Source: Trypanosoma brucei (taxonomy: Eukaryota). Taken from it: 64,000 nucleotides of DNA. The stretch lies in contig CM000207.1 of NCBI GenBank assembly GCA_000002445.1, positions 2,720,001-2,784,000 of the forward strand, given 5' to 3'. Made by a program: the position numbers and the translations under genes. The notes beneath the pieces were generated by a model. The model ran no database searches and was not told the DNA's origin. It worked only from the letters and a program-made list of their open reading frames with translations. Shown here in pieces: positions 6,375 through 64,000 of the stretch (the stretch's first letter is position 1; the number at the start of each line of letters is the position of its first letter).

Positions 6375-6390
6375 GTGTTAAAATATATCA
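6375..6390 (-). promoter_or_regulatory. VSG 3'-UTR conserved 16-mer (TGATATATTTTAACAC)
   Basis: Exact reverse complement gtgttaaaatatatca on + strand, immediately 3' of the VSG fragment at 6470..7790. Variants of this element recur 3' of every VSG here (for example 13679..13694, 34911..34925, 46135..46149, 57601..57616, 62945..62959). Confidence 0.7.
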
Positions 6391-13279: not shown

Positions 13280-13735
13280 ATGCTGCCGTTCAAATAAGGG
13301 TTAGGGTTTCACTAAAAAGAGAGCTGCTGTGCCACAAAAAAAAAGTGAATCAAAAAATGGGTCGATATTGAGATGGAAATTAGAGCTGCAGATGTAAACG
13401 TAAACAAAAATGTCTGCTTCATCAATAAGGGTTAGGGCCACATCAAAAAAAGAACCAAAATCGTGACGTATCATTGGTAGTATAAAAAAACCAAGAAAAA
13501 AAATCATAACCCTAACCCTAACCCTAACTATCCCCCCTCCCCATTTCCCCGGCTGCACAAAAAAAACTCCAAAAAAAAAGGAAAGAGAAAAAAATTTTTA
13601 GTTGTCAGAAAAACAAAAAAAATTTACAGAATCAGAAGTTTTTTTACAACCAACAAACAAAATCTCGGCTGGATTTACGTGTTAAAATATATCAGAAATT
13701 TTAACCAAAGTTTTAGCAAGGAAGAAAAAGAGGGG
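13280..13735. repeat. internal degenerate telomere-like (TTAGGG/CCCTAA) A-rich tract
   Basis: ataagggttagggtttcac; ataagggttagggccac; aaccctaaccctaaccctaac (13508..13528), embedded in poly(A)-rich sequence. Homologous to the tracts at 34100..34990 and 57170..57720. Confidence 0.6.
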
Positions 13736-13738
13736 AAA

Positions 13739-15070
13739 TTAAAAAAGCAAAAATGCAAGCAAAAGAGAAACCTTCTTAATCACAAATGAATTGCTCCCTG
13801 TGGTGTTTGTGGTTGTTTTTCCATCTTCTTTTGTTACATCTGCTTTTTGTGCTTTCTCTGTGATTTTGCACTTTTCTTTTGTTTTATTCCATTCGCAACC
13901 CTTAGTGGTGCCGCATTCAGCTTGGCCCTTGCCTTCGCATTTGGCCGCCTCCGCTTTGGTAACTTGACAACCTTCTTTGTCGTCCTGCGCTGCTGCGAGT
14001 TGACATGCTGTTTCGTTCAGAGCGATGCGAACAAGTGTTGCTGCTGCTACTGCTTGTTCTGCTTTATTAGCTGCTAAGTTGGCCTGCTTGAATTTTTTGA
14101 TTGTTTCGTGTATGCTCTTGAGCTTGTTGGCTTTGACAGTTATCTCTTTTTCGGGGTACTTATCCACCACAGTTTTCGCTGGAATTTTGAGGTCTTGCCA
14201 TGTTGACTGATCTGTGCCTAAGAGAAGCAACAGTTTGTCCGCTTGTTCTGCTGACTTAAGTTGGTCGACGATCTCTGCCAGGTGCTTTGAGCATTCTTGG
14301 TATGTTGAATCGTCGGCTGTTGGCGCCGTTTTCGTCTGCCAGTTTGTTTGGGTCGGAGCACTGCCCGTTGATGTCGTGAACAATTCGCCGCCCCAGTTGA
14401 CTGCTTGAACTATGTTCTGGCCGTTAATGTAGCCGCCATCTGTTGAGTCGTGCATGGTGAGTCCTCAGTCTGCTTCGCTGCCGTCGGCAGCTAGTTCGGC
14501 GCCGGCGTCTTTTAGGGCTGCGTATTTGCCGGCCACGTTAGGCTCCTCCGAGCTGCTGGATTTTAGTAGCGGCGGGCTACGTCCGGTAGCATCCGCGATG
14601 CAATCAAGTTCATTTGCCTTTGCTTCGTTTGTCGTCCCCTTGATGCAGTAGTTTGATCCTGCTGTTGCTGCCTGGAAAAAGACACTAACAAATTCGTGGA
14701 TTTTGCCTCCGTAGAAAGCGCAGCGCCTTGCTGTTAGTATGGCTCTTTCCGCTCCGTTTTGTATTTTTTGGGCTGTTTCGACTACTAGCTTACTGGCTGG
14801 CAGTAACAGTGTTGACATTTCCTCGTACACCGCTCCGTCAGTTGGTAGAACTGCTGTAAGCAGAATCTGTTGTAGTTCTTGCAGCTCCATTGCTTCTTGT
14901 CCAAGCTTTTGTAGACGGCCGGCGACGTATGCCGGGACCTTTGTCATTTCAAGTGATAAATGGCAAACTTTTTGCATTGCTGCCACTTTTAAGGGCTTTT
15001 TGTGTGCTGACTCTCCTAGCTGGGCATTGGATATCGCTATTGCTGCTACCACCGCTGCTAGTCTCCACAT
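13739..15070 (-). pseudogene. VSG: VSG with a single in-frame TGA (at 14465..14467); otherwise full length, about 440 aa
   Basis: ORFs 14465..15184(-) and 13739..14455(-) are in the same frame, separated only by tga. Signal peptide MWRLAAVVAAIAISNAQ, A-type N-domain (AGSNYCIKG), C-terminal domain and GPI signal ...NSFVIKKVSLLLAFLLF. Confidence 0.8.
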
Positions 15071-15974
15071 CCTTTCAGTCGGCTTAAAATCTATGAAGCA
15101 ATATGTTCGCACGTGCGGTTCTTGCCTTTCGGAGTATCGGAAGCTGTGATGAATGTGGTTCAGAGATAGCAGCGCTTGCTTCAAGTTTTTTGGGAACGCA
15201 GCTGTTGGAGGGAATGTGTAACCACTAGGGAAAACTAGCTTGGGTTAGCGCCTTTTTTTAGTTTTTGTTAAAATTGCGGGCCCAGGCTCCCGGTGCTGAC
15301 GTTACAAACATCATAAACTCTAGAGTTGCCTATGATATTTTTGATTATCTGCATTATAGGCTGCAATATATTTTGCTACTGCGCAGTGGCAGACTGACAA
15401 TACCACGCCGCTGCTGCTGGTTTATGGTGTTCTGCCGTCTGCTGAAATTAGCTTCTACAAACACTTCACACTCTTTGAATTTTCAGTTGCTTGCCTGTGC
15501 AGATAGTAATCAATATTCGTTATCAAATTACGAATTACACTCGTTGGCTGCCATTTCTACAGCCACATCATCCCATTGCTGTGTAAAATATAAGTCACCG
15601 TTTGTCTTTCCTGTATTAGTTTACCCCGTAGTTACCTGCTGTGAATTTTTTTGGTTCATTCTGTATTTTCTATACTTCCACTTTGTCTTCTATTGCTTTT
15701 TCTGTGGATAAAGTAGCGCTTCCACATCCCTTGTACGCTAGACTTTGCTTCTCTCTCTAATATTCACTTCATCATATCATTATATACAATGATTCCCATA
15801 GTCATGATTTGTTCACAACTGCGAATATTGCATAAATCAATGTCTTTGTATTTCTTAGCTACTCTTGATAAAATTATTTGTGTTCTCTATGCCTTACTCT
15901 CTCTCTTACTTGAATTGCATCATTCAAATTATTTTAAGTGCTTTTGTTTTGTCAGTGTCTTTTGTCTTAACAAC

Positions 15975-20922: not shown

Positions 20923-22377
20923 ATGATAAGAGCGATAGCCACAATAGCTTTGCTGAGCGCAGGTGCGGCAAGAGCTACACCGCCGGCAGACGACGACAAC
21001 ATAGCAACGCTGACATTGCTTTGCCCAGCACTGCAGTTAGCGGACGGCAAAATAACATTCGAGCCGACGCGACCGACGACGGCAGCAGATATTAATGATC
21101 TGCTCGCTTTAAACATGTCCCTTGCGGATTCAACTTGGCAAGCGAAATTCCAAAAAGCAAAGTCTGACAAAAGTAGCTCAAGTGACCTGGAACGGGCCAA
21201 GGAAGAAAAACTGGGAACTCAAGCTGAAATGACAGCCTGGGCCACAGCCGCCTAAGCAATCAACTCAAAAACTAAATTAGACGCCGTTCTCAAACCGTAC
21301 GGATACGACTCTACAAACATGTCCTTGCTAGCCACAGCGGCTCAGGAAATAAAACACTACACCGCACTGGCCTTTGACGCGCAGCAGCAATTAGCAGCCG
21401 CAACCATCAACGACAAACCCGATACAGAGTTAAAGCAAGCACTAGACAAAGCGATATACGGCGGGTCAGGCGGATACAAAAACACTAGGACAAAAGATGC
21501 AGGGCTCAACAGCGCCGAACCTCGCCAAACCGCTTGCGTAGAAGCCGCCAACACACACAATCCGATCAAAACAATATCCACCATAGTGGCCTGCATTTGC
21601 GCTGTGAAAAACGACATGTCACCGACGCCGACGGCACCGTGTGGACCAAACAGCGAACAATCGATAAAGTGGGAAGCCACCGGCCTACCACTGGCCGCGG
21701 CCTGGAACAAACTGCGCACAAGGTGCCCAGTGCTAACCGAAACAACGATAACAGCAAGCAAAGTAGAGACCGCGCTGAACACAGCCAAGCAGGCATTTTA
21801 CGGCAAAGGAACCGACCTTTACGTGGGAAAATACGACACCGCCGGTTGCGACGGGTCGGCAACCGGCGCATGTATAAAATACACAAACCAAGCGACAAGC
21901 GGCATACCCAAATTCGACAAAGCGGCGTGGGTCAGCGAGTTAACTACTATCATAACTGCACTAAGAGCCCGAGAAAAAGCGACCGAACGCATAAACGCGC
22001 TCCAAAACCAAATAGCGACAGCAAAAGTATTAGTAGCAGCCGCAGCTAAACATCCGCAGAGCATGAGCGACAGACTAACCGACACTGGCGGTAAAACGCA
22101 AAAACCAGAAGACGGCGACACCATTAAAGCGGCACAAAAAGAAATAGACTGCACATCACTGGACAAAGAGACATGTAAACCCGACGTTGGGTGCAAATAT
22201 AATGAAAAAGAAAGCAAATGTGAAAACGACTCTGTAAAAACTACAACAACTCCAGCCACCACAAACACCACAGCAAGCAATTCTTTTACAATTAAGAAAG
22301 CCCCTCTTTTGCTTGCAGTTTTTCTTCTAAAATTAAAAAATTTAGAATTTAATCTCGAGTTTATTATTTTATTTTAA
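20923..22377 (+). pseudogene. VSG: VSG with a single in-frame TAA (21253..21255) and an aberrantly extended C-terminus
   Basis: ORFs 20923..21255 and 21319..22377 share a frame, and the 63 nt between them is open. Signal peptide MIRAIATIALLSAGAARA; B-type motif INDLLALNMSLADSTW; C-terminal ...NSFTIKKAPLLLAVFLLKLKNLEFNLEFIILF (read-through past the usual stop position). Confidence 0.8.
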
Positions 22378-22539
22378 AATAGTTAGATATATTTAAACCC
22401 TCTTTCATAAAAATGTTCAGATTAGTAACTTTTTGCGTTAATGTCGCATATAGCTGTAAAATAGTATAGTGATGGGGTATGAAAAATGAGTGTTATTCTA
22501 ATATTGTATATTTAATTTATTTTGTGGGTATTGCTTAGA

Positions 22540-22640
22540 GTTATAATAATAATAATAGGAAAGTGTTGTGAGTGTGTATATACTAATATTATAATAAGAG
22601 CAGTAATAATAATGATAATAATGATAATGATAATAAAAAG
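22540..22640 (+). repeat. 70-bp repeat, plus orientation
   Basis: gaaagtgttgtgagtgtgtatatactaatattataataagagcagtaataataatgataataatgataatgataat is the reverse complement of the form seen upstream of minus-strand VSGs. It lies 1.1 kb upstream of + VSG 23722. Confidence 0.8.
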
Positions 22641-23721
22641 AAAGACTAAAGTCACGGCCCAAAATGAAGGATATTAAACAATTTTGAGGATGAAATGGAA
22701 GTAGCTGACGGAGTAAGTGAGATATAGTGGAAACCAGAAATATTAATGAAAGGAACTGCAGAAACAGAGGAAGAAAAATAAATATATAATATCCACAATT
22801 TTAAGCGCAAAGATGTATACGTGCATAACCATACACAAGGAGGTTATGAAGGGTAATAAATGCGAGAGGGAAAGAGATAGGGCAGTGTAAAGGAAAAGTG
22901 GATTTTATATTTTTTAAACTGTGATAGCAGCAGTTAACAAAAAATAAATAAAATACATAGCGAAACGACAGTATTTGCGACAACACCCCAGTAAAAGAAA
23001 TGATACATCAGGGTTGGTAGAAGCGAAGGATTTCCATATGCTACTCAAAAACTGATAGAATCTACTGCATAAATGGGAAAGGATCTGCTTTTTCACACAA
23101 CGTTGAACAGAGGCGTTAACAATTAGAGTAAGTTGTTTATACTGATTCACGAAGCTGTTTTGTGGGTTGAAGATTAGTTGAAAAATAGAGGGGAAAGAGA
23201 ATGGTGTTTATAGGCGGATGGATGAATGTGATTTGCGGATTTTTAAATTAATATGGGTTAGATTTTGAAAACAGGAGTAGATCATTTGCAGCGAAAAGAG
23301 ATAACATCGCAAGGCTCCCTGGTAAGTAAAAGCGTTACCGTCAACTTAAATCCGAGCGCCTGCGCAACCGGTTCTTATGGAAGGAAAAACAAGGAATCAG
23401 GATCCATGACTCCGAACAGCGGCGAACCCGCTAGACAAGAAAATTCTGCCGATCCACTATTATTGCACCACGACTCGTCGCCAAGGTGCAGCCAACAACA
23501 TGCGAAACGATCAAACACCGCAGTAACAACCTTTAAAAAAATAAAACTTACTAACCTCCCCAGATCCCCCTCACTGCTTATCACGACAGGCAGAGCCTAC
23601 AAGGGACAAGATAAGAACAATCATAGCGAGGGAACTTGAGCAAGCGAAACCAAAATATTCAATGCTGTGGGCACGTCAACTGTTCCTGTCGACAGTGCTA
23701 TAATCGGTCTTTTTACTCAAG

Positions 23722-25100
23722 GTGGCAGCCGATTTTTCTGAACTCGCGAATGCTAACGAAGCGACGGCGCTTTGTGCGATCGTAACACTCGCCGGCCAGC
23801 GGTCTTCGTTACCCAGCAGCAACGTACAACCACCGTCAGCCCTCAACGACCTCTTAGACCTCAACATGTCGGTGGCGACAAACGAATGGCGGGAACTCTT
23901 CAGGGCAGGGCCAGGGAAAAACACAACGAGGGATTTCCCTGAGGCCGACTACAATGAAACAACAGACTGGAAAGGAAAATGGGCCGCATGGAAAAGCAAA
24001 GCAGAAGAGCTTCTGAGCACAGACAAACTTAAAGCCAAGAGGGAGCAACAAGGGCTAAAACATGCAACTGAAGAACAGATAGCCGAAATCCGACGCGACG
24101 TGCAGAAACGTGCGGCGGAAGCGGTGGCGCTTCACTTCCAAGCAGAAGCGGACGCGCCATCGACAGACCTTCTAACGGACGAGACAATACAACAGCTTCT
24201 AAACGAAGCAGTCTACGGCCAAAAAACGGAAGCAACAGGTCAAGCTTTGGCAAAAAACAATTTCGACGAGACAACAGGCGGCAGCAGGCAGGCGCTCTGC
24301 ACAGGACAAAAGGATGGCGGAAAAACAAAAACGGTCCTCGGTACGCTGGCGTGCCTCTGCATGAAAGAAAGCACCAACAACGCCCATAATCAACACAAAG
24401 TATGCCGAGCCGATCCCGCCATGTCGGCAACATGGACCCAAGGTAGTACGCCGCCGAATCAAGCGACGATGGAGGAAGTGAAAAAACTGTGTGACACTCA
24501 AACGACAAGCCAAATAACTGCGGCGAAGCTAGAATCAAAAATAGACGCCATAACAAGCCTTATAAAGTTAGACACAACAAAGGCGACCCTCGGTGTGTAT
24601 CTAGGTACAGACTGCTCAGCACAAGATACAAGAGGGATATGTGTAAGCTACAACGGCCTTTCACAAGGAGCGGGAAAAGCCAGCGAAGTGATACCTTGGC
24701 TGGAGCAGCTTACCGACCTGCTAGGAAAATTACGAAAACATAAAAAAGCCGTTGCAATCCGACAGCACACTGCAGATGCAGTAAAGTCAAAAGCCAAGAT
24801 AACGAAGGACCTAATCTACCATGCGCGACCGTGGGCAAACAAAAACGTTGCTCAGAAGAATGTCAAAAAAAAAATAGTGACGACGCAACCTTAGCAAAAA
24901 CAAAAGAATGCGCACAACACAAAAATAACAAAAAACCTTGCACAGGAGCGAAATGCTCATGGAAAGGTGGAGAAAGCGAAAACAAAGGGGAGTGCGAAGT
25001 AGATGAGAAACAAGTTAAAAAGAAAATAAAAACAGAAAACAGTGAAAATGCAGGAACAACAAACACTACAGGAAACGATTATGCTGTTATTAACAAGTAG
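23722..25100 (+). pseudogene. VSG: VSG pseudogene (no ATG or signal peptide; frameshift in poly-A run about 24862..24873)
   Basis: ORF 23722..24894(+) starts at gtg. It has LNDLLDLNMSVATNEWRELF (B-type) and IPWLEQLTDLLGKLRKHKKAVAIRQ. ORF 24831..25100(+), in another frame, carries the C-terminal domain CTGAKCSWKGGESENKGECEV...NDYAVINK. Confidence 0.8.
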
Positions 25101-28724: not shown

Positions 28725-31700
28725 TTGAGCGAGACAAGGATGACGCTTGAAGAGGCGGCTTGCTTTAGCGTTGCTGGCTACCAACATCACGGAATAGCTC
28801 GTAACTGCAAAGGAGGTGGTGTATCAATACTAGTGAGGGAGGACCTACCAGTTGAGATCGGTATGGCCGTTGTTGGTCGCATTGAACAAGTGCATGCAAC
28901 AATTCACCTTGCACGTGGAAAGGCGCTGACTGTCACGTCGGCATACGTCCCACCAAAACACACCTTCACGGCAACTGACCTAGATACGCTTCTGACAACT
29001 GACGGTTACCAGCTCATCGGTGCAGACGCTAACGCACACGCGTTGGCATGGGATCGCACGAGCCCACCAAATACCAAGGGTGAAACCCTCACACAGTGGT
29101 GCATTGACAACCAGTTTCTGGTCTGCAACACTGGTCAGTGCACCAGGTACGCGCGCCACCACGGGGAGTCCACCCTTGATGTGACACTGTCAAGGAATTG
29201 CACAGTGTACATGTGGACATCGCTGTATTCTCCCGATAGCGATCACCATAACATATTTTTCGACTTTATCGTTGGAGATGACACAGATGCACTGAGTTGC
29301 CCGCGGCTTCGAAAGCCCATGTACGCATGGCTAAAAGCTAACTGGAGGAATTTCCGTCTCAAGGTTGACGAGCTCTGCAGGAAAATTGGTAGAGAGAAGA
29401 ACGTCAATACCCTGGAACAGAAATTGAGCTCCGCCATCCGCATTGCGACGAAGATGTTCGTCCCCCGTAGCTGCAGAGCAACGCCACCACATTGGACACC
29501 AACGCTCACTAAACTCGATGAAGAGATCGCTGGATGCGGACCCTCCCACCGAAGGGAAATGTTGGTAGCCACGCGTAAGCAGATCCTGGACCGTACCACA
29601 AAGAAGAGATGGAGAACGCTATGCTCCAGACTTGCGGTGTCAGACCGCTGCAGTTGGCACATTGTCAAGAAGGTATATGCGCCACGACCACTAACCACAC
29701 TGGCTGTACTTGTTGATAACGCGGCCATCACGGACTACCATCAAGCTGAGAGGTTCAGTAAACTGTACTCGTCCCGTGCAAGAACGCACCCCGACTCACA
29801 CCCACCGGCACCAATAAAGACGATAGCGAGTGAGTTCAGTCCCATCACGATGGCTGAACTATGGAGATCGATCAAACTGCTTCCGACCGGATCCGCAGCA
29901 GGACCTGATTGCTTATACAACGAGGCAATACAACATTTCGGTAGAACAGCGCTGAATGTTGTTCTGAGGCTATTCAATGAGAGCCTACGAACGGGAGTCG
30001 TGCTGCCTGCATGGAAGATTGGTGTTATCATCCCCATCCTGAAGGCCGGAAAAAAGGCGGAGGACCTCGATTCTTACAGGCCTGTGACGCTCACAAGCTG
30101 TCTCTGCAAAGACATGGAGCGCATAATTGCCGCGAGGCTTAGAGACACTGTTGAGTCCCAGCTGACGCCGCAGCAATCAGGCTTTCGCCCCGGATGCTCA
30201 ACGCTCGAACAACCGCTGCACGTCCGCGCTGCCCTCTGCCGCCCCACGCACCAATATCGTACAGGTGCTGTATTCGTTGACTACGAGAAGGCATTCGATA
30301 CAGTAGACCACGACAAAATTGCGAGGGAAATGCACAGAATGAAGGTATCACCCTACATTGTGAAGTGGTGCGTATCATTTCTGAGTAACCGAACTGGAAG
30401 AGTGAGATTCAAGGAGAGGCTTTCCAGAAGCAGAACATTTGAGCGAGGAGTGCCACAAGGAACTGTCCTTGGCCCAATCATGTTCATTATTGTCATGAAC
30501 TCGTTGAGCCAGCGCCTTGCAGAAGTGCCGTTGCTGCAGCACGGATTCTTTGCAGACGACCTAACGCTACTTGCGAGACACACAGAGAGGGATGTCATCA
30601 ACCACACACTGCAATGCGGCCTAAACGTGGTGTTACAGTGGTCACAAGAGTACTTCATGTCTGTCAATATAGCGAAAACAAAGTTCACACTCTTCGGGTG
30701 TATAGAGCGCCACCCCCTTACATTGCAACTGGACGGCGAAAGAATAGGAGCTGACAGGACACCGAAGCTTCTCGGAGTAACATTCCAGTGTCTGCAGGGG
30801 ATGGCAACACATGCAGCCGAAACGAGACGCAAGATGGACTTCCGACTACTGCAGATAGCATCCATCTCAGCTTCTACATGGGGGCCAAGACGACAAGTAC
30901 TGAGAGCTTTTTATCTAGCACTCGTACAGGCACACACCATGTATGGCATTGAGGTATGGTACTGGGACGCTTCGGAACGAAGTCGCGACCTCCTTGCAGC
31001 AGCACAACACAAAGCCAGTCGCATCATAGCTGGCATACCGCATGGGACGCGCAAAGAGAACTCTCTGCTGGAAGCAAACCTCCTGCCACTCAAGACGGCC
31101 ACTCTTGTGCGCAGCATGAAATTCATACTGATGTGTGAGTCACGAGGCGGATGTCTGCGCCGCAGTGCTGAGGAAGTACACCACAGCAAACATCCAGTCA
31201 GAGTCTTACATTCCCGCATCATGCGGTCCTACCCCCACCTCCGCATTGAGCCACGCGAGCACCCACTGGAGACATCGACACTCCGCCACAGCTGCCGACC
31301 GCTATTTCACACGCAGATAAAGCCTGTGTGCGCTGATGACCCTGACGATGTCAAAAGGGAGGCTTCCGAAAAGTGGATTGAACGGCATTTTGCACGGAGG
31401 GGGAAGGAGCCACCGCGACGAGAGCACTACGAATTGTGGACTGATGGATCCGTGTCCCTCGGTGAGAAGTCCGGAGCAGTTGCTCTGCTCTATAGAAACA
31501 ACACGCTGATTTGTGCACCCAAAACTGGAGCAGGGGAACTCTCATGTAGTTACAGAGCGGAATGCGTAGCATTAGAGATAGGACTGCAACGGCTGCTGAA
31601 ATGGCTCCCGGCTTACAGAAGCACACCGAGCAGGTTGTCCATCTTCTCTGACTCGCTGTCAATGTTAACAGCACTGCAGACAGGTCCCCTAGCCGTAACG

Positions 31701-32576
31701 GACCCAATTCTGAGACGACTATGGAGGCTTCTGCTTCAAGTTCAGAGAAGGAAGGTGCGTATCCAACTGCAATTTGTGTTTGGCCATTGTGGCGTGAAAC
31801 GGAATGAGGTTTGTGATGAAATGGCCAAAAAGGCCGCTGATTTACCACAGTTGCGAGATACATGGATCCCCGACATCATTGCTTATGCGAAGCGAGTGCT
31901 TAGGTCGGAAGAAGTCCATGAGAACACTCATAGGTTTGGTATCACGGGCAACCACTTTCCAACAAAACATAAGGAAGAACTGACGAGGGAAGAAGAAACG
32001 GCACTGGCACGCTTTCGGGTTGGGTCTTCAAGACACTATGGATGGATGTTGCGAAAGATCAACCCGAGTGTGCCTCCACAGTGCCGATGGTGCAACCCAC
32101 AACATGCAGCGATAGGACCAACAATACAAACAGCCCCACTTGTTGCGACACGCACTCTTCAGAGAACCTCCGAACCGATCAAATGTACGGAATGTGATGC
32201 CACATACCAATGCCGCTCGAGTACTGTAACGCACATGGTAAACAAACATGGCTTTGTGCGAGCTGATGCCCTCCGGAGGATCAAATACGGCGATGCAACA
32301 CCCGCAGTGGATATCCCCCCGGAGCCCCCTCCAGTGGTGGCGATCGTTCCTCTACCATCGAGCACACGAGTCCCGATGAGACCGCAGGTGCTTCATTGTA
32401 CCATCTGTGCCTCCAAATTCGCAGTACCAGGCAGACTATTACACCACCTTAGAACAATACATGGCATAGGCAGCGGTAGTTGCCGCGTGAAAAGGGGGCG
32501 AGAGAACGAGGACTCATTGCAAGGAGATGGTAGAGCCCCAGCAGCGCCAGCCTCTCAGGATACACGGAAGCTGTAG
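28725..32576 (+). CDS. ingi polyprotein ORF (endonuclease C-terminal part, reverse transcriptase, RNase H, zinc fingers), 1283 aa, ending at an in-frame stop
   Basis: ORF-track protein with RT motifs (YRPVTLTSCLCKDMERIIAARL; FADDLTLLA), RNase H and CxxC...HxxxH fingers (CTECDATYQCRSSTVTHMVNKHG; CTICASKFAVPGRLLHHLRTIHG). Confidence 0.85.
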   Translation: MSETRMTLEEAACFSVAGYQHHGIARNCKGGGVSILVREDLPVEIGMAVVGRIEQVHATIHLARGKALTVTSAYVPPKHTFTATDLDTLLTTDGYQLIGADANAHALAWDRTSPPNTKGETLTQWCIDNQFLVCNTGQCTRYARHHGESTLDVTLSRNCTVYMWTSLYSPDSDHHNIFFDFIVGDDTDALSCPRLRKPMYAWLKANWRNFRLKVDELCRKIGREKNVNTLEQKLSSAIRIATKMFVPRSCRATPPHWTPTLTKLDEEIAGCGPSHRREMLVATRKQILDRTTKKRWRTLCSRLAVSDRCSWHIVKKVYAPRPLTTLAVLVDNAAITDYHQAERFSKLYSSRARTHPDSHPPAPIKTIASEFSPITMAELWRSIKLLPTGSAAGPDCLYNEAIQHFGRTALNVVLRLFNESLRTGVVLPAWKIGVIIPILKAGKKAEDLDSYRPVTLTSCLCKDMERIIAARLRDTVESQLTPQQSGFRPGCSTLEQPLHVRAALCRPTHQYRTGAVFVDYEKAFDTVDHDKIAREMHRMKVSPYIVKWCVSFLSNRTGRVRFKERLSRSRTFERGVPQGTVLGPIMFIIVMNSLSQRLAEVPLLQHGFFADDLTLLARHTERDVINHTLQCGLNVVLQWSQEYFMSVNIAKTKFTLFGCIERHPLTLQLDGERIGADRTPKLLGVTFQCLQGMATHAAETRRKMDFRLLQIASISASTWGPRRQVLRAFYLALVQAHTMYGIEVWYWDASERSRDLLAAAQHKASRIIAGIPHGTRKENSLLEANLLPLKTATLVRSMKFILMCESRGGCLRRSAEEVHHSKHPVRVLHSRIMRSYPHLRIEPREHPLETSTLRHSCRPLFHTQIKPVCADDPDDVKREASEKWIERHFARRGKEPPRREHYELWTDGSVSLGEKSGAVALLYRNNTLICAPKTGAGELSCSYRAECVALEIGLQRLLKWLPAYRSTPSRLSIFSDSLSMLTALQTGPLAVTDPILRRLWRLLLQVQRRKVRIQLQFVFGHCGVKRNEVCDEMAKKAADLPQLRDTWIPDIIAYAKRVLRSEEVHENTHRFGITGNHFPTKHKEELTREEETALARFRVGSSRHYGWMLRKINPSVPPQCRWCNPQHAAIGPTIQTAPLVATRTLQRTSEPIKCTECDATYQCRSSTVTHMVNKHGFVRADALRRIKYGDATPAVDIPPEPPPVVAIVPLPSSTRVPMRPQVLHCTICASKFAVPGRLLHHLRTIHGIGSGSCRVKRGRENEDSLQGDGRAPAAPASQDTRKL

Positions 32577-34099: not shown

Positions 34100-34990
34100 G
34101 ACGGGGTACCGTAAAAAAACAGCCGCTATATCACTAGAAGAAAAACATGGATCATTAAAAAAATATTGGGTCGATGTGGGGATGAAAAAGAAGGTGGAAA
34201 AAATTTAAGGAAAGATGTATGCTGGATGAAAAACGGTTAGGGTTTGCAGAAAAAAGAGACGCTTAATAATTAAACAAAATTAAAAAATATATTTAAAAAA
34301 ACTAAAAATCAAAAAAATCAAAAAAATGAAAATTTAGAAAAAATTAAAGAGGCAAATTTTTTTAAAACGCTTCTGAAGTACAAAAAATAAAAGCCGCCGC
34401 ACGGCTTGTGAGAATAAGGGTTAAGGTCCCATAACAAAATAGCCGCTGGACGGCTGAAAAAATAAAAACAAAAGCTAAACCCCAAAACGACTCAGAAAAT
34501 TAAAAAATTAGCGTGGAGGAAAATTAACCCTAACCCGAAACACCTCGGCATAAAAAGGAAGGGAGGTCCAAAAAAAACGATATCGGATGGAAAAGGAAAG
34601 TAAAAAATATCAAAGGTCAAAAAAATTTTTAAATTAAAATTCAAAAATTCACGAAATTAAAAAAATGCTGAAAAAAAATTTAAGCATAAAAAAATCAAAA
34701 TTACAATTAAAAAGTTGTTAAAATAGAAAAATTCAAAAAATCTAAAGGTCTAAAAATCTAAAAACTTTGAAAAAACCCTAAAAAATACTAACCCTAAAAT
34801 GTCAAAAAAATTCAAAAAAGGGAGAAAAAATGGAAAAAAATATAGGCGCCAGAAAAAAATCACAGAATCAGAATATTTTACAAAAACACACTATTTTCAG
34901 GTAAATTACCTGTTAAAATATATCAAATAGCAAAAATTTCTTTTAAAAGGGGAAATTTGTTTTAGAAAAACAAGGCCACAAAAGCAAAAA
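34100..34990. repeat. internal degenerate telomere-like A-rich tract
   Basis: aacggttagggtttgc; ataagggttaaggtccc; aaccctaacccgaaac; actaaccctaaaatg, inside poly(A)-rich DNA. The segments tgggtcgatgtggggatgaaaaag and cagaatcagaatattttacaaaaacac are homologous to the 13.3 to 13.7 kb and 57.2 to 57.7 kb tracts. Confidence 0.55.
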
Positions 34991-39731: not shown

Positions 39732-41174
39732 CTAAAATTCTACAAAACCCACAAAAGAAGAAACAATCAGGGCGATTTTTTTGTTTACTAGAATGGAGGA
39801 ATCTTTGCATTCTGTTCCTTCCCATTTGCAACCATCTTTGCACACGGCTTCACTTTTATTATCTTTGCATTTTTCTGTTGTTGTTTCAGGTCCTCCAGTT
39901 TGTGCTTGTGTTACAGAAACACTCTTCTTTTTTGCTTTTTCTGTATCTAATTTGCACTTTTTATTTTCATCAGTTTCTGTTTTGTTAAAACTGCATGCAG
40001 CTGTTGCATTGCAGTCTGCTTCGATTTTAATTTCGTTGCAGCCGCCTTCTGTTGTGATTGGGTTACATTCTGTTGGTGGTGGTGGTGGAGTTATTTCCTG
40101 TGTTAGTTGCGCTCTTTTTGTGGTCTCAGTGCTTTTTCCTGATGCCGTAACTGCGTCCCCTCTAAGCTTTTTGATTGCCTTGTGAGCTGCTTTCAGCGTC
40201 GGTACGGATATTTCTACAGTTTGTTCCGTGTCGCCAAGTCCGAGTTTGGCTTCCGTTGTAGTTATAGCTTTAAAAGTCGGGTTGGGGTCGGCGCTTCCGA
40301 GTGTTGTTAATTGACCGAGTGCCGCCGTCGCTGCGTCTAAGCTTGCGGTACATGTTGGCTTTAGAGCCTTGACTTTGGTTATCGGGTTATTTGTTTCGAG
40401 TGGATGGCCGGTGGACCAGCTAGTCGCCGCTGGTACTGAACCTGTCAGTTTTAGCAAGCCGGCCATAAGATAGATCGTTGGTGCGGTGCCCCCCCCGGCG
40501 CCCATTACTCCGTTTGTGCCGTCAGTTGCTGAGAGTCGGCAGCTTTTGGTGGCGTCGACGCCTTTGCTGCCATCGCCTCCTGTGCCGAAGTTTGTTAGAG
40601 CGTGCTGGGCGCCGGTTAAGGTTGCGACCGCCTCCTTCTTGAAGGTTCGTCTCACGGCGTCTCTGTCCTTGCAGTCGGGGATATCGTTGATGGCTGCTCT
40701 GCCGCCTGCTCCGTCGTTGCTCATGCAATAGTTCGAGCCGCCGTTGTTCGCGGCAAAAAACAGGTGCGTGGTTTCTAGTATCGCACCGGCAACAAAGGCT
40801 CCTTCATTTCCGGCGTCTATCGCTGCTGCCAAGTGTGTTCGCACAGCTGCCTTTGCTTCGTCTACTGTGGTCCTAGTATGCATCAGAAGGTTTATATTGT
40901 CGTCGTTCCTCGCCAGTGTCCCTGATTTCATTAACTTTTTTATGTCGTGGAGTATCGTTTCAACTTCAAAAAGGTGGCTTGTTAGTGTTTTGGTTATTGT
41001 TTCGGCGTAACTACCGTATTTCATCAGCTCGTTGGCAATCTTGCAGCTGTCATCAAATCCCTTGGCTTTTAAGGCTTCTTGTGTGCCCATGGTTGGTGCT
41101 GACGTCGAAATTAGACTCAGGATTGCCAGCAACATCTGGTACAGGACAGGTCTACGTTTGGATGTTTGAGTCAT
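39732..41174 (-). CDS. VSG: VSG, apparently intact (480 aa, A-type N-domain, two Cys-rich C-terminal subdomains, GPI signal)
   Basis: Single uninterrupted ORF MTQTSKRRPVLYQMLLAILSLISTSAPTMG (signal peptide) ... GGSNYCMSNDG ... ECNPITTEGGCNEIKIEADCNATAACSF ... CKDNKSEAVCKDGCKWEGTECKDSSILVNKKIALIVSSFVGFVEF. 3'-UTR element variant at about 39640..39660. 70-bp repeat 1.5 kb upstream. Confidence 0.75.
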   Translation of the reverse strand: MTQTSKRRPVLYQMLLAILSLISTSAPTMGTQEALKAKGFDDSCKIANELMKYGSYAETITKTLTSHLFEVETILHDIKKLMKSGTLARNDDNINLLMHTRTTVDEAKAAVRTHLAAAIDAGNEGAFVAGAILETTHLFFAANNGGSNYCMSNDGAGGRAAINDIPDCKDRDAVRRTFKKEAVATLTGAQHALTNFGTGGDGSKGVDATKSCRLSATDGTNGVMGAGGGTAPTIYLMAGLLKLTGSVPAATSWSTGHPLETNNPITKVKALKPTCTASLDAATAALGQLTTLGSADPNPTFKAITTTEAKLGLGDTEQTVEISVPTLKAAHKAIKKLRGDAVTASGKSTETTKRAQLTQEITPPPPPTECNPITTEGGCNEIKIEADCNATAACSFNKTETDENKKCKLDTEKAKKKSVSVTQAQTGGPETTTEKCKDNKSEAVCKDGCKWEGTECKDSSILVNKKIALIVSSFVGFVEF

Positions 41175-44571: not shown

Positions 44572-45834
44572 CTGGTAGTCTGCTTTGCCTATAGAGTTAA
44601 AAGTGTAGTCAAAACGAAGTTACTGACACATCTGGATAGTTATTAGGTGCGTTTGGTTTTTATTTTTGGCGGTCTAATTGAATTTTGTTTCTGATTTTAA
44701 TTTAGATGTAGTCTGCCACTTCCGCTATTCTGATCTATATCGTTCTATTCCTATATATAAAACAATTAAAATTTATGGTTTCTTTGAGTCAGTCTATTTC
44801 AGTCCAGCTTCTGCTTGCTAAATGCATCGTCTACAATGATATAACGCCAATTGTTTTGCAGCACGCATGATTGTATGTATTTTACACTGTAACCCCAGCT
44901 GATCGTCGGTTTCTTTAGTCTATCACACGGTAACTGCGTAACCTCGTGCACTCTTTTTTCTTTTGAACATTCTTGTTATTCTTCAACACCGCGTCAGCGT
45001 GTATTTTTATGCTAATTAGCCACTCTTGAAACAGTCATAGTGTCTGACCGGTAAAACAATAGGTAGTGGTGGTGTATCATTACAAACTTTTGACACTTTA
45101 CATGAATATTCTTTAACGACTAATTCTCGCACCATTTTAAGAAGTTTTCGCACCTTTACCCTTCTTCTTCTTGCCAAAGAAATTCATTAGTAGTCTTGGT
45201 TTTATACTTATTCTCCCAATAATATAACATTTGTTTCTACAAGGTTTGACCATTACTACTATATTTTATGGGAAAAAGGCTCCCACACTACCTCATAATT
45301 ATCTAATTCCTTCTTTCTGCTGTTGGTGTTCCTATTTATTTAAAGCTGGATATTAGAATTCACCATTAAATTAAAAACCACGTTTGCTACTGTTGTTTCT
45401 TCAATGGCTTATATATCCATTTTTAGTAAAATACGTGGCGTTATCGGTTACTGTTTCATGTGCTTTTTTGTTACGAAGTCTTGTAGTTTATCGTTTTATG
45501 CCATATTTAATTATCTTCTTTTCCTTTTTCCCTCTCTAAACGCTTCGGCAGATGACTTAGAAATTTGATTTGGCTACTAAAGAGGACTCTTTCTATTCCT
45601 CATTGTCCCCCATCATGGCCATGCGCATGATGATGACCATTTTCATGTTTGTGATTGAAACTAGGAATCTTCAAAATTTCTTCCCTTTATGTTTCTCTTT
45701 CTGCTTTCCATTTTATAATGTAACGAGTGCTTGATGTTTTATTTAATTAAACACCCATTTACTTACTTCAATTTCACCATCGTCGTTGCCTTCAGTTTTT
45801 CCATTTGTATACTTATTCAGCTATCAAAAATGTT

Positions 45835-45965
45835 TAATATAATATTCGTATATACACACTCACTACACTCTCCTATTATTATTATTATTACTGCTCTTAT
45901 TATAATATTAGTACAAACACGTTCACAACTGCCTCCTATTATTATAATCTTTATTATCATAACTC
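45835..45965 (-). repeat. 70-bp repeats (about 2 copies)
   Basis: aatattcgtatatacacactcactacactctcctattattattattattactgctcttattataatattagtacaaacacgttcacaactgcctcc. Confidence 0.8.
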
Positions 45966-46201
45966 TAAGCCTAGCCACTATCCGTAAATAGGTCAAAATA
46001 ACAAAATTAAAATGTTACTCACTTTGTTACACCTTATCACCATAATAAGCGGCATACACAGGACACAGTAATATACATTTTACTAAAATTTCATATTTTA
46101 AAAAATTTCACTAATTTTCACACTTTTATTAAAGGTGTTAAATATATCAAATTTAGAAAACTTCATTAATTTCATAAAGTCGAGGGGAAATCTTAAAAGT
46201 T

Positions 46202-47656
46202 TTATAGAATCAAAAATGCTAGCAAAAGAGGAGCTTTATTGATAACAAAAGAATTACTTACTGTGGTGTTTGTAGCTTTTCCATCTGTCCCTGTTGCTGC
46301 TGTGGTCGCTTTAACTTTGCACTCCCCATCTTTGTATTCACACCCATCCTTGTTGTTGCATTTAGTTTCGTCTTTTTCTCCCTTGCACTCTTCTGATTTT
46401 TTGTTATACACTGTTTCTGATATGTTCTTCATTTTCTCTGCCGTTTACAGTTTCCGCTTGATTCTTATTCCTTCCATTTGGCTGAGAGCTAAGTTTGCTG
46501 CTTGTGCTGTTGTCATGCTTGTAATCTTCTTTTTTTCCTGCTTGACTCTGTCTCTTGTCGGTGTTGTGTCTGCAGCAAAATCTTCTTCAAAACTCGCTTT
46601 AAATGCGTTGGCGTCGTGCCCGAATTTGCTCGAAATCCACTCTGATATTTTTTGACCCTCCGCTCCGCTTTGTGGGTCATCTGCGCTGTCGAATTTGGGG
46701 AGACAGTTGCGTATCGTGCGGCGCACTATTGGGTTATCCTTTAGAGCTGGGCCACTTAGGGTGGGCATCGTTTCTGGCGCAACGTCGGCCTTTAGTGCTT
46801 CGCAGAGTTTCTGGGCGAGTGTTTTGGGGTGATTGGCTGCGTCCTGTGGAGATGCGGCGTCATTGGCACACGCTCCACGCTTCTCGTTCGATGCGAAGAA
46901 TTGAATTTGAGTCTGAGCCGGTTTTCCGACCCAGTTTCCGTGCGTGAACGCGACTTTGCCGTCGCTGGCATGCCATGTGCAGGCGTTAAGCACTGTGCCT
47001 TGGCTACCGCTGCTACCGCCGCTGAAGCCTGAACCGTGGGCTGGGACCAACTTTTTGGTTGGGACGTATTCGTGGAGTTTTGCTGCGTCCGTTACTTTCA
47101 GCTTGTACAGTTTCGTTGCATCTGGGTTTCTGCCTTTACATTCTGGTGTTGCCTCTGGTGCTGTTGGCTTGCAAATCTGTTTACCGGCCGCTTTCGTTTC
47201 AAGGTTTATAGTAACTGTGTGGCTTGCTTTAGTGTGACTGGCGTCCGTTTTCGCCCCTACTACTGTTGTCGCCACCGCTATTGCCGCTTGGGCTATACCG
47301 ATCTGAATATCTATCCTTTGCTGCGCTGCCCGCATAGCGGTCGTTGCTACCGCGAGCTTACCTTCGTTTCTCTCGAGGCTGTTCCCTGCGAGAGCCACCA
47401 GCGCCAGGATGCTGCAGATGTATTCGGCCACCATAGCTTTCGCTGCTGCCAGCCTGTATTTGCGCGCCAAAGTTTTTGAGTCAGCGACTGCTGGGCTCAG
47501 CGACCCGAGTCGGCCTTCAAGCTGTTTCCTAAGTTCTTTTAGGTAGTCGACCTCAGTGCAGGGGTCCGTTATCCCTTTTTCCGCGGCGGGGTCGTTTGTT
47601 TCAGCCGCCGACGTAGCCGTATATTTAGATAAAAGAAGCGCTATGGTTAGTGTCAT
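46202..47656 (-). pseudogene. VSG: VSG with a single in-frame TAA (46445..46447); otherwise full length
   Basis: ORFs 46445..47707(-) and 46202..46432(-) are in the same frame, separated by taa plus 4 sense codons. Signal peptide MTLTIALLLSKYTATSAAE. C-terminus ...CKGEKDETKCNNKDGCEYKDGECK...NSFVINKAPLLLAFLIL. Confidence 0.8.
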
Positions 47657-48624
47657 TGCTTTTTTCAATATCGTGTGGCAGCAGCTTGGTTTACGGTCAA
47701 GAATCATATTGTATATTTCTTCTACTGCTCTCTAACTTGCTTCCAAAAGCTGCATATGTTTTGTTACAGGGTTTTGTGTAAATCACAATTTTTGTTAAAT
47801 TTTTCTGACGGCTCTTAGTTTGATATATAAGAAAATTGGGTTTATACAGTTTATTAAAAATTTTGATGCTAACTCCACTTTGGCTTCCAGTGTACTGATC
47901 AGCATTTATATAAGTAAAAAAAAAACTAACGTAAAACTCGAAAAGTAGTGAATTATTCTATTTTAAAGTTGCATTTGATTGTGGCTTGTTGTATTCATTC
48001 GCCGTCATTTGTTGCTTATATTGTCGCATTGCACGCTCGTTTCAGGATTTTTGTGATTTTGTAAACGATTATTTAGCCTGTTTTAGGGGTAAGTATTGAC
48101 ACGAAAGTCTGTCACAACTATTGATGTGTATTTTATATTCATGCTTTTGATTTAATTGTGAGTGTGCGCACTTTTTTGGCACTTTTTCCTTTTCCACTGT
48201 TTGTTTCGCTTGTAGTCTGGTGTTTGTTGTTCTTTTCAAATACTTGGAATTAGAATACGCCATAAAGTCAAAAACTAGAGTCTTCACCATCATCTCTGCG
48301 GTGCCATCTATTCGAATTTAAGATAAATACCAGCTGACACAATTCCCCCTTCCTCCTCCTGATATATTACCTTCTCTTTCATATTTTTTCTCCGCCTCTG
48401 CAGGTAATGTAGAGAAAACATTTTTCCTGCGCACGGGATTTTGTCTCCACCTTTTTGTTTTCCCCATCATATCCCTGTGTATGATACTGCCTATCAACAT
48501 GTCTGTATACAAAGCTGCTCATTTTTCATTTCCATTTCTTTTAGTCTTCACTAATTCCCATTGCACCATTTCCATTGTTTAGAGAACTTCTATTTCAACT
48601 GTGCATTTACTGTACACTACTCCT

Positions 48625-48745
48625 ATTATAATAGTATTAGTATACACACACACTCACAACACTTCTATCATTATCATTATCATCATCATCATCATTATTA
48701 TTATTATTATCAATATTGCTTATTATTATTACCATTATAGTCAAA
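48625..48745 (-). repeat. 70-bp repeat with long TCA/TTA triplet run
   Basis: ctattataatagtattagtatacacacacactcacaacacttctatcattatcattatcatcatcatcatcattattattattattatcaatattg. Confidence 0.8.
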
Positions 48746-57720: not shown

Positions 57721-59349
57721 AATTGTTTGTTTAGGAGAAAACTGGAAGAGCGGCACCTAAACTCGTCTTTGTCCTTGTCAGCTTCGCCACCTTTTTTCCA
57801 GGCACAAACAGGTTTGTCTTTTCCTTCATTCATTTTTTTACAGCCGCTTTCGTCATTGAAATGCTGTGCACATCCAGTTTGTGTTTTCTCCCTCTGCAGA
57901 TCCCTCTCCTGCTCCTGTTCCTGCTGTGTTTGTCTGTCCTTCTCCATCTTTAGCTGTGCACTTTCCTTTGGTGTCACTCTCTCCTGTCCATTCGCAAGGT
58001 TCATTACATTCTTCTTTCTTGATTTTTTCTGAGCATTTGGGATTCGTTCTGATTGTTTCTTCAAAAGTCTTCCGGCAGTTGGCGGTCCCCTGATACTTTG
58101 CATACATTACCGCTTCCGCTGGTCCTGTTGATGCTTTTTTGGCGAGAGCAGCTAGTGTCTCGGAGGTTTCTTTTCCTGCTATTTTGTAACGTTCTGTCTG
58201 CTCTGCGGCTGCTTTTAGAAAAACGACTTCAACTGAGTCTGTCGATTCGCCTAGAAAGTCCCTGACTGCTTTGGCCTTGTCAGATACAGCTTTGTCTGGG
58301 TCGTATTTGTCTGGGTTTAAAGCTATAACGATTTCCTGCATCGTTAGGTCATTTGCCAAGTCACTCACCTTTTCTGCGCTTACTGTCTTTTGTTTTTTTG
58401 CCTTCTCTGCATTTCCGCGGCACAGCTGTGCCGCCATCAGGTCTGCTGTTACTGTGAGTTTTGTGTCCTTTCCGTCTATGGTTTCACATGTACGATCGCC
58501 GCTGGCTTTGGTGTACTTTGCTGCTTTATTATTCGGCGAGCTTGGCTCCGCCGGTTTCATTGTGTGTATTCCCACTGCGCCGTTTTCTGATCCCTTTGCT
58601 ACGTTGGTACCGCACGCGTTGTTGTTTTGTTGAGTGCTCAGCTCTGCGCTAACTGTTCCTTTACAAACTGCTTTGACTGTTAAGTGTGGTCTTTTGAACA
58701 GATCGTCGTGAACTAATGTTAGAGTTTCATATGTGTCTAAGTGAGTAGCGGCATGATCGAGCTCCTGCGTGTTCGCGTTTTCTGTATCGCATGCGTTTTG
58801 CGGCTTTTCTGCCCCGTCAAATCGAACTGAGCACGCTCCTGTTGAGCCTGCAGTGAAAAAGTCGTTGCCTGCCCCTGAGCTTGCTTGCGTTGTCGCCCGG
58901 GGCTCCGTAAACAAGTCGACCTGCGTTAGCATTGCCAGCTGTCCGCGGCGCTTGTCTATTATTTCCGGTGTCTTTTGCCATTCTTCTGTTTTGCTCGTAA
59001 GCTCAGAAACTTGGGTCTGTAGGCGAGCCGTTGTTAGTGCTGCTAAGGCTGTAAGTTTTTTTTGTGTGGATCCCGTTGGTGTCTTGGCTTTTACCAATTC
59101 TATTAACGCCACGTCATTGGCTAATTCTGCCGCCGCTTTCTGAGTTTCTGCTATCCGCTGCGAAAACCTTGTCCGAATTGCTTTTAAAAATCTTGTCTCT
59201 GAGCATGGCATCGTTATCTTAGCAAGCAATGGAGTGTGTGTCGTGGCTTGTGCCTCTTTTTCTAGCGACACCGCCAGTAGAGCTAGTACAAATTGCAAAC
59301 CGCTTCCTGAAATAGACATAGACCGTATTGACAACGTATAAGCCGGCAC
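57720..59349 (-). pseudogene. VSG: VSG pseudogene (B-type; frameshift at N-/C-domain junction)
   Basis: ORF 57853..59349(-) MPAYTLSIRSMSISGSGLQFVLALLAVSLEKEAQA..., 498 aa. ORF 57675..58103(-) C-terminus ...CRSSSFLLNKQFALSMVSAAFVALLF in another frame, diverging after EGSAEGENTN. Confidence 0.8.
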
Positions 59350-62785: not shown

Positions 62786-63013
62786 TATCTAATATCCTCA
62801 AACAAAATAAGCCAATATAATAAATTTTTAATAATGACGCTAATTTTTCATTCACTATCACCATACTGCTTTACACCCATAGGATACTTTTATACTAACA
62901 CTTCATATTTTAAAAAATTTCACTAATTTTCACACTTTTATTAAAGGTGTTAAATATATCAAATTTAGAAAACTTCATTAATTTCATAAAGTCGAGGGGA
63001 AATCTTAAAAGTT

Positions 63014-64000
63014 TTATAGAATCAAAAATGCTAGCAAAAGAGGAGCTTTATTGATAACAAAAGAATTACTTACTGTGGTGTTTGTAGCTTTTCCATCTGT
63101 CCCTGTTGCTGCTGTGGTCGCTTTAACTTTGCACTCCCCATCTTTGTATTCACACCCATCCTTGTTGTTGCATTTAGTTTCGTCTTTTTCTCCCTTGCAC
63201 TCTTCTGGTTTTTTGGTGTCAATTGCTTTGGGTATGTTTTTCTTCTCTGCTTCAAGTTCCCTCTTGATTCTTATTCCTTCCATTAAGCTCACAGCTTGAT
63301 TGGTTTTCTCTGTAGAACTGGTTAGTTCGGTGATCTTTTTGCTTTCTACCTCTCCCTTGTCTCGTATGGGTGTGCTTTCACCCTCAAGTAGGGACTTGAA
63401 TTTGTCGTTGAAATTGTCTGCTGTTTCTCCGTAGCCTTTTTCTATCCATTTTATCAATTCTTTTGCCTTGCTGTTATCCGTTGGGTCGTCTATGTTGTGA
63501 AACGCAGGCCAGCAGTTGCGCACATAGGTTCGGATCGCATGAGACCCGCTGAGGCTTTTGCCGCTATATTCAGATATTTTTGTTGTGTTTGGTGTTAGCT
63601 TCACGCCCTCGCATATCGCCTTGGCTCGTCTTTTCAGTGGCTCATTTGCTGCATCTGCTGCTGTGATGTCTGAGTGGCAGGCTGTCTTGTCTTCGTTGCT
63701 CTTGAAAAAGTGGGTTGCTGTCCTGTAGGCTGATGCTGGCGGTTTGGCTTTTGTTATTTCGACAGCACCTGAGGCGCCGCTGAACGAACATGCGTTTAGT
63801 GCACCCGTAGCGCTTTGGCTGTTTTGCGTTGTGCAGCCGCCTTCGGCTGTAATTTTGATACCGTCCAGTTGATTGGCTTTGTTAACTTTTGATTTATCTG
63901 TGAGGTCCAGTTTAAAAAGGTCTTGCGGTTCCGGTGTTTCCCCTCCGAACGTTTCTTTTGCTTCGTCAGTTTCTAATTTGCACAGGTCTTCGCTTTTCGC
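63014..64000 (-). pseudogene. VSG: VSG, 3' two-thirds (runs off window end); frame break near 63604
   Basis: ORF 63014..63604(-) ...MEGIRIKRELEAEKKNIPKAIDTKKPEECKGEKDETKCNNKDGCEYKDGECK...NSFVINKAPLLLAFLIL. This is a paralog of VSG 46202..47656, with an identical roughly 310-bp 3' end. Upstream sequence to 64000 is VSG N-domain-like in other frames. Confidence 0.7.

Follow-up and report, generated by a model that had tools for sequence, protein, structure and literature searches.

Array context and features of the locus

The window (the whole stretch of 64,000 nucleotides of Trypanosoma brucei DNA that was analysed) is a silent subtelomeric VSG array of T. brucei brucei, most likely of strain TREU927. 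The sizeable open reading frames (ORFs) around the gene of interest, hereafter gene A, all belong either to VSGs or to an ingi-type retroelement, and both 70-bp-type repeats and the 16-mer of the VSG 3' UTR recur along the minus strand of the window. Pfam models of VSG_B or Trypan_glycop (A-type) matched the ORFs at 2290, 7237, 9902, 14465, 16527, 21319, 23722, 35630, 39732, 43573 and 49681. Only two VSGs of the window are clearly intact (39732..41174 and 57853..59349); the second gene of interest, gene B, is open as far as it is visible. The intact VSG neighbouring gene A encodes 480 aa. The remaining VSGs are frameshifted or truncated.

A single in-frame stop interrupts the VSG at 13739..15184 (-) midway along its N-terminal domain and leaves two ORFs, 13739..14455 and 14465..15184, in one frame. 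With a cluster of VSGs from EATRO1125 and T. evansi (P0106) this VSG has 77% identity, and it has a canonical 16-mer at 13679. The ORF at 28725..32576 (+) encodes 1283 aa with endonuclease, reverse transcriptase and RNase H, i.e., an ingi-type non-LTR retrotransposon lies within the array. Two B-type VSG ORFs at 21319..24894 (+), accompanied by a 70-bp repeat core on the same strand (22563..22600), lie in an array that is otherwise on the minus strand; this pair is a local inversion or a strand switch.

The genes and the elements that surround them are the following (coordinates of the window):

46202..47656 (-): gene A, a full-length VSG pseudogene of 484 conceptual codons plus the terminal stop, with one internal TAA
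46448..47656 (-): region of gene A encoding the signal peptide and the N-terminal domain, 403 codons, open
46445..46447 (-): in-frame TAA, codon 404 of the 484 of gene A, aligned with GAA in gene B
48620..48735 (approximate, -): 70-bp-type repeat, read directly, about 930 nt upstream of gene A, 5' boundary of the cassette
45834..45953 (-): 70-bp-type repeats downstream of gene A, part of the next cassette
46135..46149 (-): defective 16-mer of the VSG 3' UTR, 15 nt, TGATATATTTAACAC, with one T missing, common to gene B
62947..62961 (-): the same 15-nt variant of the 16-mer (TGATATATTTAACAC) in the gene B copy of the shared block
63014..64000 (-): gene B, cut by the end of the window, its 327 available codons open, likely source lineage of the block shared with gene A

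The repeat upstream of gene A consists of a TAA/TGA-rich run followed by GTGTTGTGAGTGTGTGTGTATACTAATA, and related copies of this core are found elsewhere in the window. The canonical 16-mer of VSG 3' UTRs is TGATATATTTTAACAC (bioRxiv 10.1101/2020.01.30.925776), and it has been reported as essential for VSG mRNA stability and for the m6A of the poly(A) tail. Canonical copies are located at 6375, 13679 and 57600, and copies with one mismatch at 34910 and 42926. Gene B, with a 16-mer that lacks one T, nevertheless counts as an intact VSG in the TREU927 annotation.

Gene A is a full-length VSG with a single lesion

Two ORFs of gene A share a frame and are split by one TAA, as had been noted earlier from the sequence. 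The first (46445..47707, -) gives 420 aa if read from an upstream ATG and 403 aa if read from 47656, the ATG at which the signal peptide opens with MTLTIALLL. The second (46202..46432, -) gives 76 aa. The TAA separating them (46447..46445) stands in the context ...MEGIRIKRKL*TAEKMKNISE..., and it is the sole interruption of the 484 codons, which contain no frameshift. Past it, 80 in-frame codons encode the hinge, a four-cysteine C-terminal domain and a GPI signal (conceptual translation TAEKMKNISETVYNKKSEECKGEKDETKCNNKDGCEYKDGECKVKATTAATGTDGKATNTTVS-NSFVINKAPLLLAFLIL). The four-cysteine subdomain (...EECKGEKDETKCNNKDGCEYKDGECK...) and the hydrophobic GPI-anchor signal that follows it (TTVS/NSFVINKAPLLLAFLIL) were read directly; the terminal stop codon is at 46204..46202 (-). 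The earlier note placed the internal stop at the domain boundary, which is a fair description: it lies in the linker, 21 codons ahead of the first cysteine of the C-terminal domain.

Gene A was not matched by the A-type and B-type VSG models of Pfam, nor by Trypan_glycop_C, at E<=0.01; at this threshold Pfam gave no match at all for gene A or for the available part of gene B. The membership of gene A in the VSGs therefore rests on pairwise homology. Its N-terminal domain is 88% identical over 278 aa to VSG 1755 of Lister 427 (P0001) and its N-terminal region also clusters with VSG 1125.1518 of EATRO1125 (P0124); identity with other named VSGs is 28-42% across 93-100% of the length. An exhaustive search of representative proteins with the 80 residues after the stop (E<=0.001) returned 117 matches, and all 21 whose source name was seen were named VSGs. 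A word-indexed protein search with the hinge and the C-terminal domain of gene A (129 aa, with X at the stop) scored nothing. We rejected the possibility that gene A is not a VSG, given its strong homology to named VSGs despite the silence of Pfam. Gene A is a silent array VSG pseudogene of the commonest kind, i.e., of full length and disabled by one nonsense codon.

The orthologues of gene A in the other two strains, VSG 1755 (287 aa) and 1125.1518 (304 aa), both end in ...PKNSPTHSVKH. This ending matches another reading frame of gene A near 46800 (46792..46971, -), so a frameshift, and not a stop in the hinge, breaks the Lister 427 and EATRO1125 genes. Like a mosaic, gene A (46823..47656, -) differs from both of them in two discrete patches, one at about aa 175-200 and one at about aa 257-276.

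Genes A and B share an identical 3' block

The comparison of gene A with gene B adds the following elements:

46090..46395 (-): block of 306 nt, 100% identical between genes A and B, a putative recent gene-conversion tract
62902..63207 (-): gene B copy of the 306-nt shared block
46457..46478 (-): island of 22 nt, AATGGAAGGAATAAGAATCAAG, encoding MEGIRIK, identical to 63263..63284 of gene B, a candidate upstream crossover site for 3' donation
46396..46456 (-): A-specific diverged hinge of 61 nt, about 70-74% identical to gene B, with two in-frame 3-nt insertions; it contains the TAA

The shared block, delimited by local alignment and by the longest exact match, comprises 63 codons (EECKG...LIL) with the stop codon after them, and runs on for 112 nt into the 3' flank. 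The earlier note reported an identical C-terminal domain and 3' UTR in the VSG at 63014; this is correct for these 306 nt, and the identity stops short of the TAA. In the rest of the 64-kb window nothing is closer to the block than 72-80%. Both copies have unique, diverged flanks around the block, for which reason we rejected the collapse of two loci in the assembly as the source of the identity.

Reading upstream from the block, genes A and B first differ at 46396 (TCA, Ser, and CCA, Pro, respectively). Another 7 nt are identical beyond it, up to 46403, after which identity collapses. This 5' edge (46396-46404) is seamless: it keeps the reading frame and shows neither indels nor untemplated bases, and none of the 306 bases copied in gene A differs from gene B. 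The edge lies shortly before the first C-terminal-domain cysteine, and the 3' limit of the block is about 45 nt past the 16-mer. Aligned by codons, genes A and B have 45% nucleotide identity over 230 codons of the N-terminal domain, 22 identical positions out of 22 in the island, about 70-74% identity in the hinge and 100% in the block. A near-identical 3' segment, distant N-terminal domains and an abrupt boundary are what is expected from 3' donation. VSG conversions terminate in the 3' coding region or in the 3' UTR (PMC1868767), and the boundaries of the block in gene A, past the 16-mer at one end and in the region of the hinge and C-terminal domain at the other, match these known limits.

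The MEGIRIK island occurs in two copies only in the window, where none is expected by chance. It is identical between genes A and B at all synonymous positions, with diverged sequence on both flanks, and may be what is left of an earlier conversion tract, or else a place where crossovers recur.

Probable direction of the transfer

Gene B matches an intact VSG of TREU927 (XP_827755.1, P0125) over the roughly 100 C-terminal residues that were compared by eye. Directly upstream of its block, and continuous with it, gene B has the standard hinge of the family, RELEAEKKNIPKAIDTKK, and its hinge and C-terminal domain resemble those of VSG 572, 712 and 1125.280. The N-terminal domain of gene A belongs to another lineage, that of VSG 1755 and 1125.1518, and its hinge is an outlier. 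Because the hinge and C-terminal domain of gene B match the family and the hinge of gene A does not, the block would be native to the lineage of gene B and foreign to gene A. Hence, to judge by family resemblance between proteins, the transfer most likely went from the B lineage to gene A.

Perfect identity is symmetric, and one can also read it the other way round, with gene A as the source of the 306 nt and gene B as the recipient. There would therefore be no junction in gene A, and the TAA would be a plain mutation in its native 3' region. Gene B is 98% identical to VSG 546 of Lister 427 (P0002) over its 327 available residues, and the differences from this orthologue are unevenly distributed: none in 229 residues of the N-terminal domain, seven in the last 98 (Fisher p = 1.9e-4). 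The 3' end was therefore exchanged or patched in one of the strains since they split, an example of how readily 3' ends recombine in this family. Such an exchange could have happened in either strain, which leaves room for gene B as a recipient. A homologue search with gene B returned no third-strain orthologue by which the seven differences between the two strains could be polarised. At most of the seven sites, nevertheless, the TREU927 gene B state is also that of the outgroup VSG 572 and of other family members. Together with a gene B hinge of family-standard sequence that runs into the block, and an outlying one in gene A, this makes the reversed direction unlikely. The differences between gene B and VSG 546 (63014..63310, -) begin upstream of the block shared with gene A.

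The stop codon aligns with a conserved glutamate

The TAA is separated from the 306-nt block by 50 nt (17 codons), or by 42 nt if one mismatch is allowed, with about 15 mismatches and two in-frame 3-nt insertions in between. On its other side the MEGIRIK island ends 9 nt upstream, and these nucleotides include three mismatches specific to gene A. The earlier note had proposed that the lesion lies at, or very near, a recombination junction. A tract edge does exist nearby, at 46396-46404, but the TAA is 42-50 nt upstream of it, in sequence specific to gene A. The same note regarded identity starting well downstream of the stop, and unrelated to it, as evidence against its reading; this is essentially the pattern given by the alignment of the two genes, in which identity begins 50 nt downstream of the TAA.

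We inspected the hinges of 12 related VSGs (P0002-P0008, P0011, P0015, P0041, P0125, P0126), and all 12 have Glu where gene A has the TAA. They carry the motif RIK-(R/K)(E/K)(L/I/H)-E-(A/G/V)-(E/G)-KK, three of them as a close variant, and in gene A (RIKRKL*TAEK) the stop aligns with the Glu of the motif. Since the homologous codon of gene B is GAA, and all 12 hinges have Glu, one G-to-T transversion suffices to produce the TAA. An independent nonsense mutation of this type would be its simplest origin, with the ancestral codon deduced from the paralogues.

As the TAA is a single base away from a sense codon, one could also suspect an error of sequencing or assembly in an otherwise intact gene A. 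This is extremely improbable: there is no sign of low quality at the TAA, an array VSG is expected to contain in-frame stops (PMC1868767), and in two other strains the orthologue of gene A is likewise broken, in a different manner.

The hinge around the stop is a genuine variant

The hinge of gene A keeps the frame and the residues AEK..KN..KK, and its TVYNKK matches the TVYSKK of one VSG (P0041). Because its indels relative to gene B are codon-sized and TVY.KK is common to P0041, this hinge would be templated or ancestral sequence, and not junction filler. Its sequence suggests the same hinge module in an older form that has since diverged.

A templated hinge might also have come from elsewhere, as a short mosaic patch of 61 nt copied, together with its stop, from a third VSG pseudogene that was already defective. 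The order of the segments in gene A (identical island, 61 diverged nt, identical block) is the expected trace of an internal patch, and patches with 5-20 bp of flanking homology have been documented (PMC13233330). Yet the 64-kb window contains no matching donor: a sensitive blastn search of the window with the hinge returned only chance 8-12-mers. The hinge is also absent from the 117 relatives of the C-terminal domain, the closest of which has TVY.KK alone, a weak negative as protein databases are blind to pseudogene donors. We regard such a patch as improbable.

The earlier note also suggested that the TAA is possibly the footprint of an imprecise segmental conversion. It could then be a by-product of the event that brought in the C-terminal domain, if ends were joined imprecisely, repair synthesis made errors or heteroduplex next to the tract was wrongly repaired. 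Lu et al. (Cell, 1993) reportedly described point mutations accompanying VSG gene duplication or conversion, and the TAA is at most 50 nt from the tract edge, in the sole diverged segment between two stretches identical to gene B. But the junction is seamless and in frame, the TAA neither coincides with it nor straddles donor and recipient sequence, and the converted 306 nt are free of errors. The approximately 15 mismatches and the two codon-sized indels between the TAA and the block resemble natural variants of the hinge, unlike repair errors. A scar of imprecise recombination should combine a lesion that coincides with the join and an indel, filler or disruption of the frame; we found none of these in gene A. 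With an in-frame join, a stop that aligns with a conserved Glu and a hinge that is a genuine variant, the view of the TAA as a scar of the recombination is not supported, and we judge a by-product of this kind very unlikely.

The proximity of the stop and the tract edge is compatible with chance

We estimated how often a stop would fall close to the tract by counting all the single-base changes that create a stop in the restored gene A. As many as 14% of these one-step nonsense paths are within 50 nt of the tract edge, and 7% are in the 61-nt hinge. The abundance of Lys and Glu codons in the hinge accounts for these shares. Chance co-location is thus expected at 7-14%, which weakens the case for a by-product of the conversion. 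The more specific arrangement, a TAA inside the 61-nt diverged segment flanked by stretches identical to gene B, is nominally a coincidence of 4-7%. The closeness of the TAA to the junction was noticed after the fact; it is compatible with chance and unremarkable.

One may nevertheless speculate, with very little confidence, that a more general process is at work: synthesis linked to conversion, or heteroduplex repair, may be mutagenic just outside the tract, or stops in the hinge may be tolerated or favoured since 3' donation bypasses them. If conversion were mutagenic nearby, archive VSGs would gather nonsense and frameshift lesions beside the 5' edges of exchanged 3' modules. Under either hypothesis the formation of pseudogenes would be linked mechanistically to the exchange of C-terminal domains. 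The one wider question that gene A touches, beyond the reach of a single locus, is whether lesions cluster at the edges of conversion tracts genome-wide.

A probable history of two ordinary events

We think it likely that gene A was shaped by two independent and ordinary events, a precise gene conversion of its 3' end and a GAA-to-TAA point mutation in its own hinge. In the first, a homologous conversion of the 3' donation type would have overwritten the last 306 nt of gene A from a VSG of the 546/572/712 family. The most likely donor would be gene B, which is 16.8 kb away in the same orientation. In the second, a separate G-to-T change would have turned the Glu codon GAA into TAA (46447..46445) in the older, diverged hinge of gene A. 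The order of the conversion and the TAA mutation relative to one another is one that we infer.

Such a gene should still be usable as a donor, because the whole of its antigenically relevant N-terminal domain is open. A conversion ending upstream of 46447 would pair the N-terminal domain of gene A with the resident C-terminal domain of the expression site, and so bypass the TAA. The MEGIRIK island would be one possible end point of this conversion, which would spare the expressed gene both the TAA and the defective 16-mer. By 3' donation, a crossover few codons upstream of the TAA would thus give a functional chimeric coat protein. Gene A illustrates cleanly why such a pseudogene stays useful: its sole coding lesion comes after a complete N-terminal domain.

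Comparison with known systems

Only 4.5% of the array VSGs of TREU927 are intact (PMC1868767), and around 80% of the VSG repertoire of T. brucei consists of pseudogenes or fragments (PMC13233330); the predominance of broken VSGs in the window agrees with these figures. Gene A is like the array pseudogenes of TREU927 described in VSGdb (PMC1868767) in its location in an array, its upstream 70-bp repeat, its complete domains, its GPI signal, its 3' UTR motifs, with the 16-mer as a variant lacking one T, and its in-frame stop. We found no substantial difference from the class of full-length pseudogenes in VSGdb, within which gene A is a mild case, with one lesion in 484 codons, placed past the N-terminal domain.

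The exchange between genes A and B resembles 3' donation, which Hall, Wang & Barry (2013, PMC3708902) observed for 57% of expressed VSGs. In both cases the C-terminal domain and the 3' UTR are swapped between VSGs of low identity, with a precise boundary in the region of the hinge and C-terminal domain. However, 3' donation was seen in expression sites during infection (PMC3708902), whereas the exchange in gene A is fixed between silent array genes. The lesion of gene A escaped this exchange, as the tract begins 42-50 nt too far downstream.

Recombination sites of mosaic VSGs have 5-20 bp of flanking homology and depend on homologous recombination (PMC13233330). The event in gene A is similarly templated and guided by homology, and the 7 nt of identity ahead of its tract edge are within this range. 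It differs from those mosaics in being archival and germline-like, with no sign of induction by DNA breaks or of selection by antibodies.

The sole precedent that we can name for a mutagenic conversion is the work of Lu et al. (1993), in which the mutations were reportedly inside the newly copied tract; in gene A, the tract is free of errors and the TAA is outside it.

Both features of gene A, the nonsense stop and the borrowed 3' end, are already known to be routine in the antigen-gene archive of T. brucei. The locus is a textbook example of an archive in which silent VSGs are mostly pseudogenes and 3' ends are shuffled apart from the antigenic N-terminal domain.
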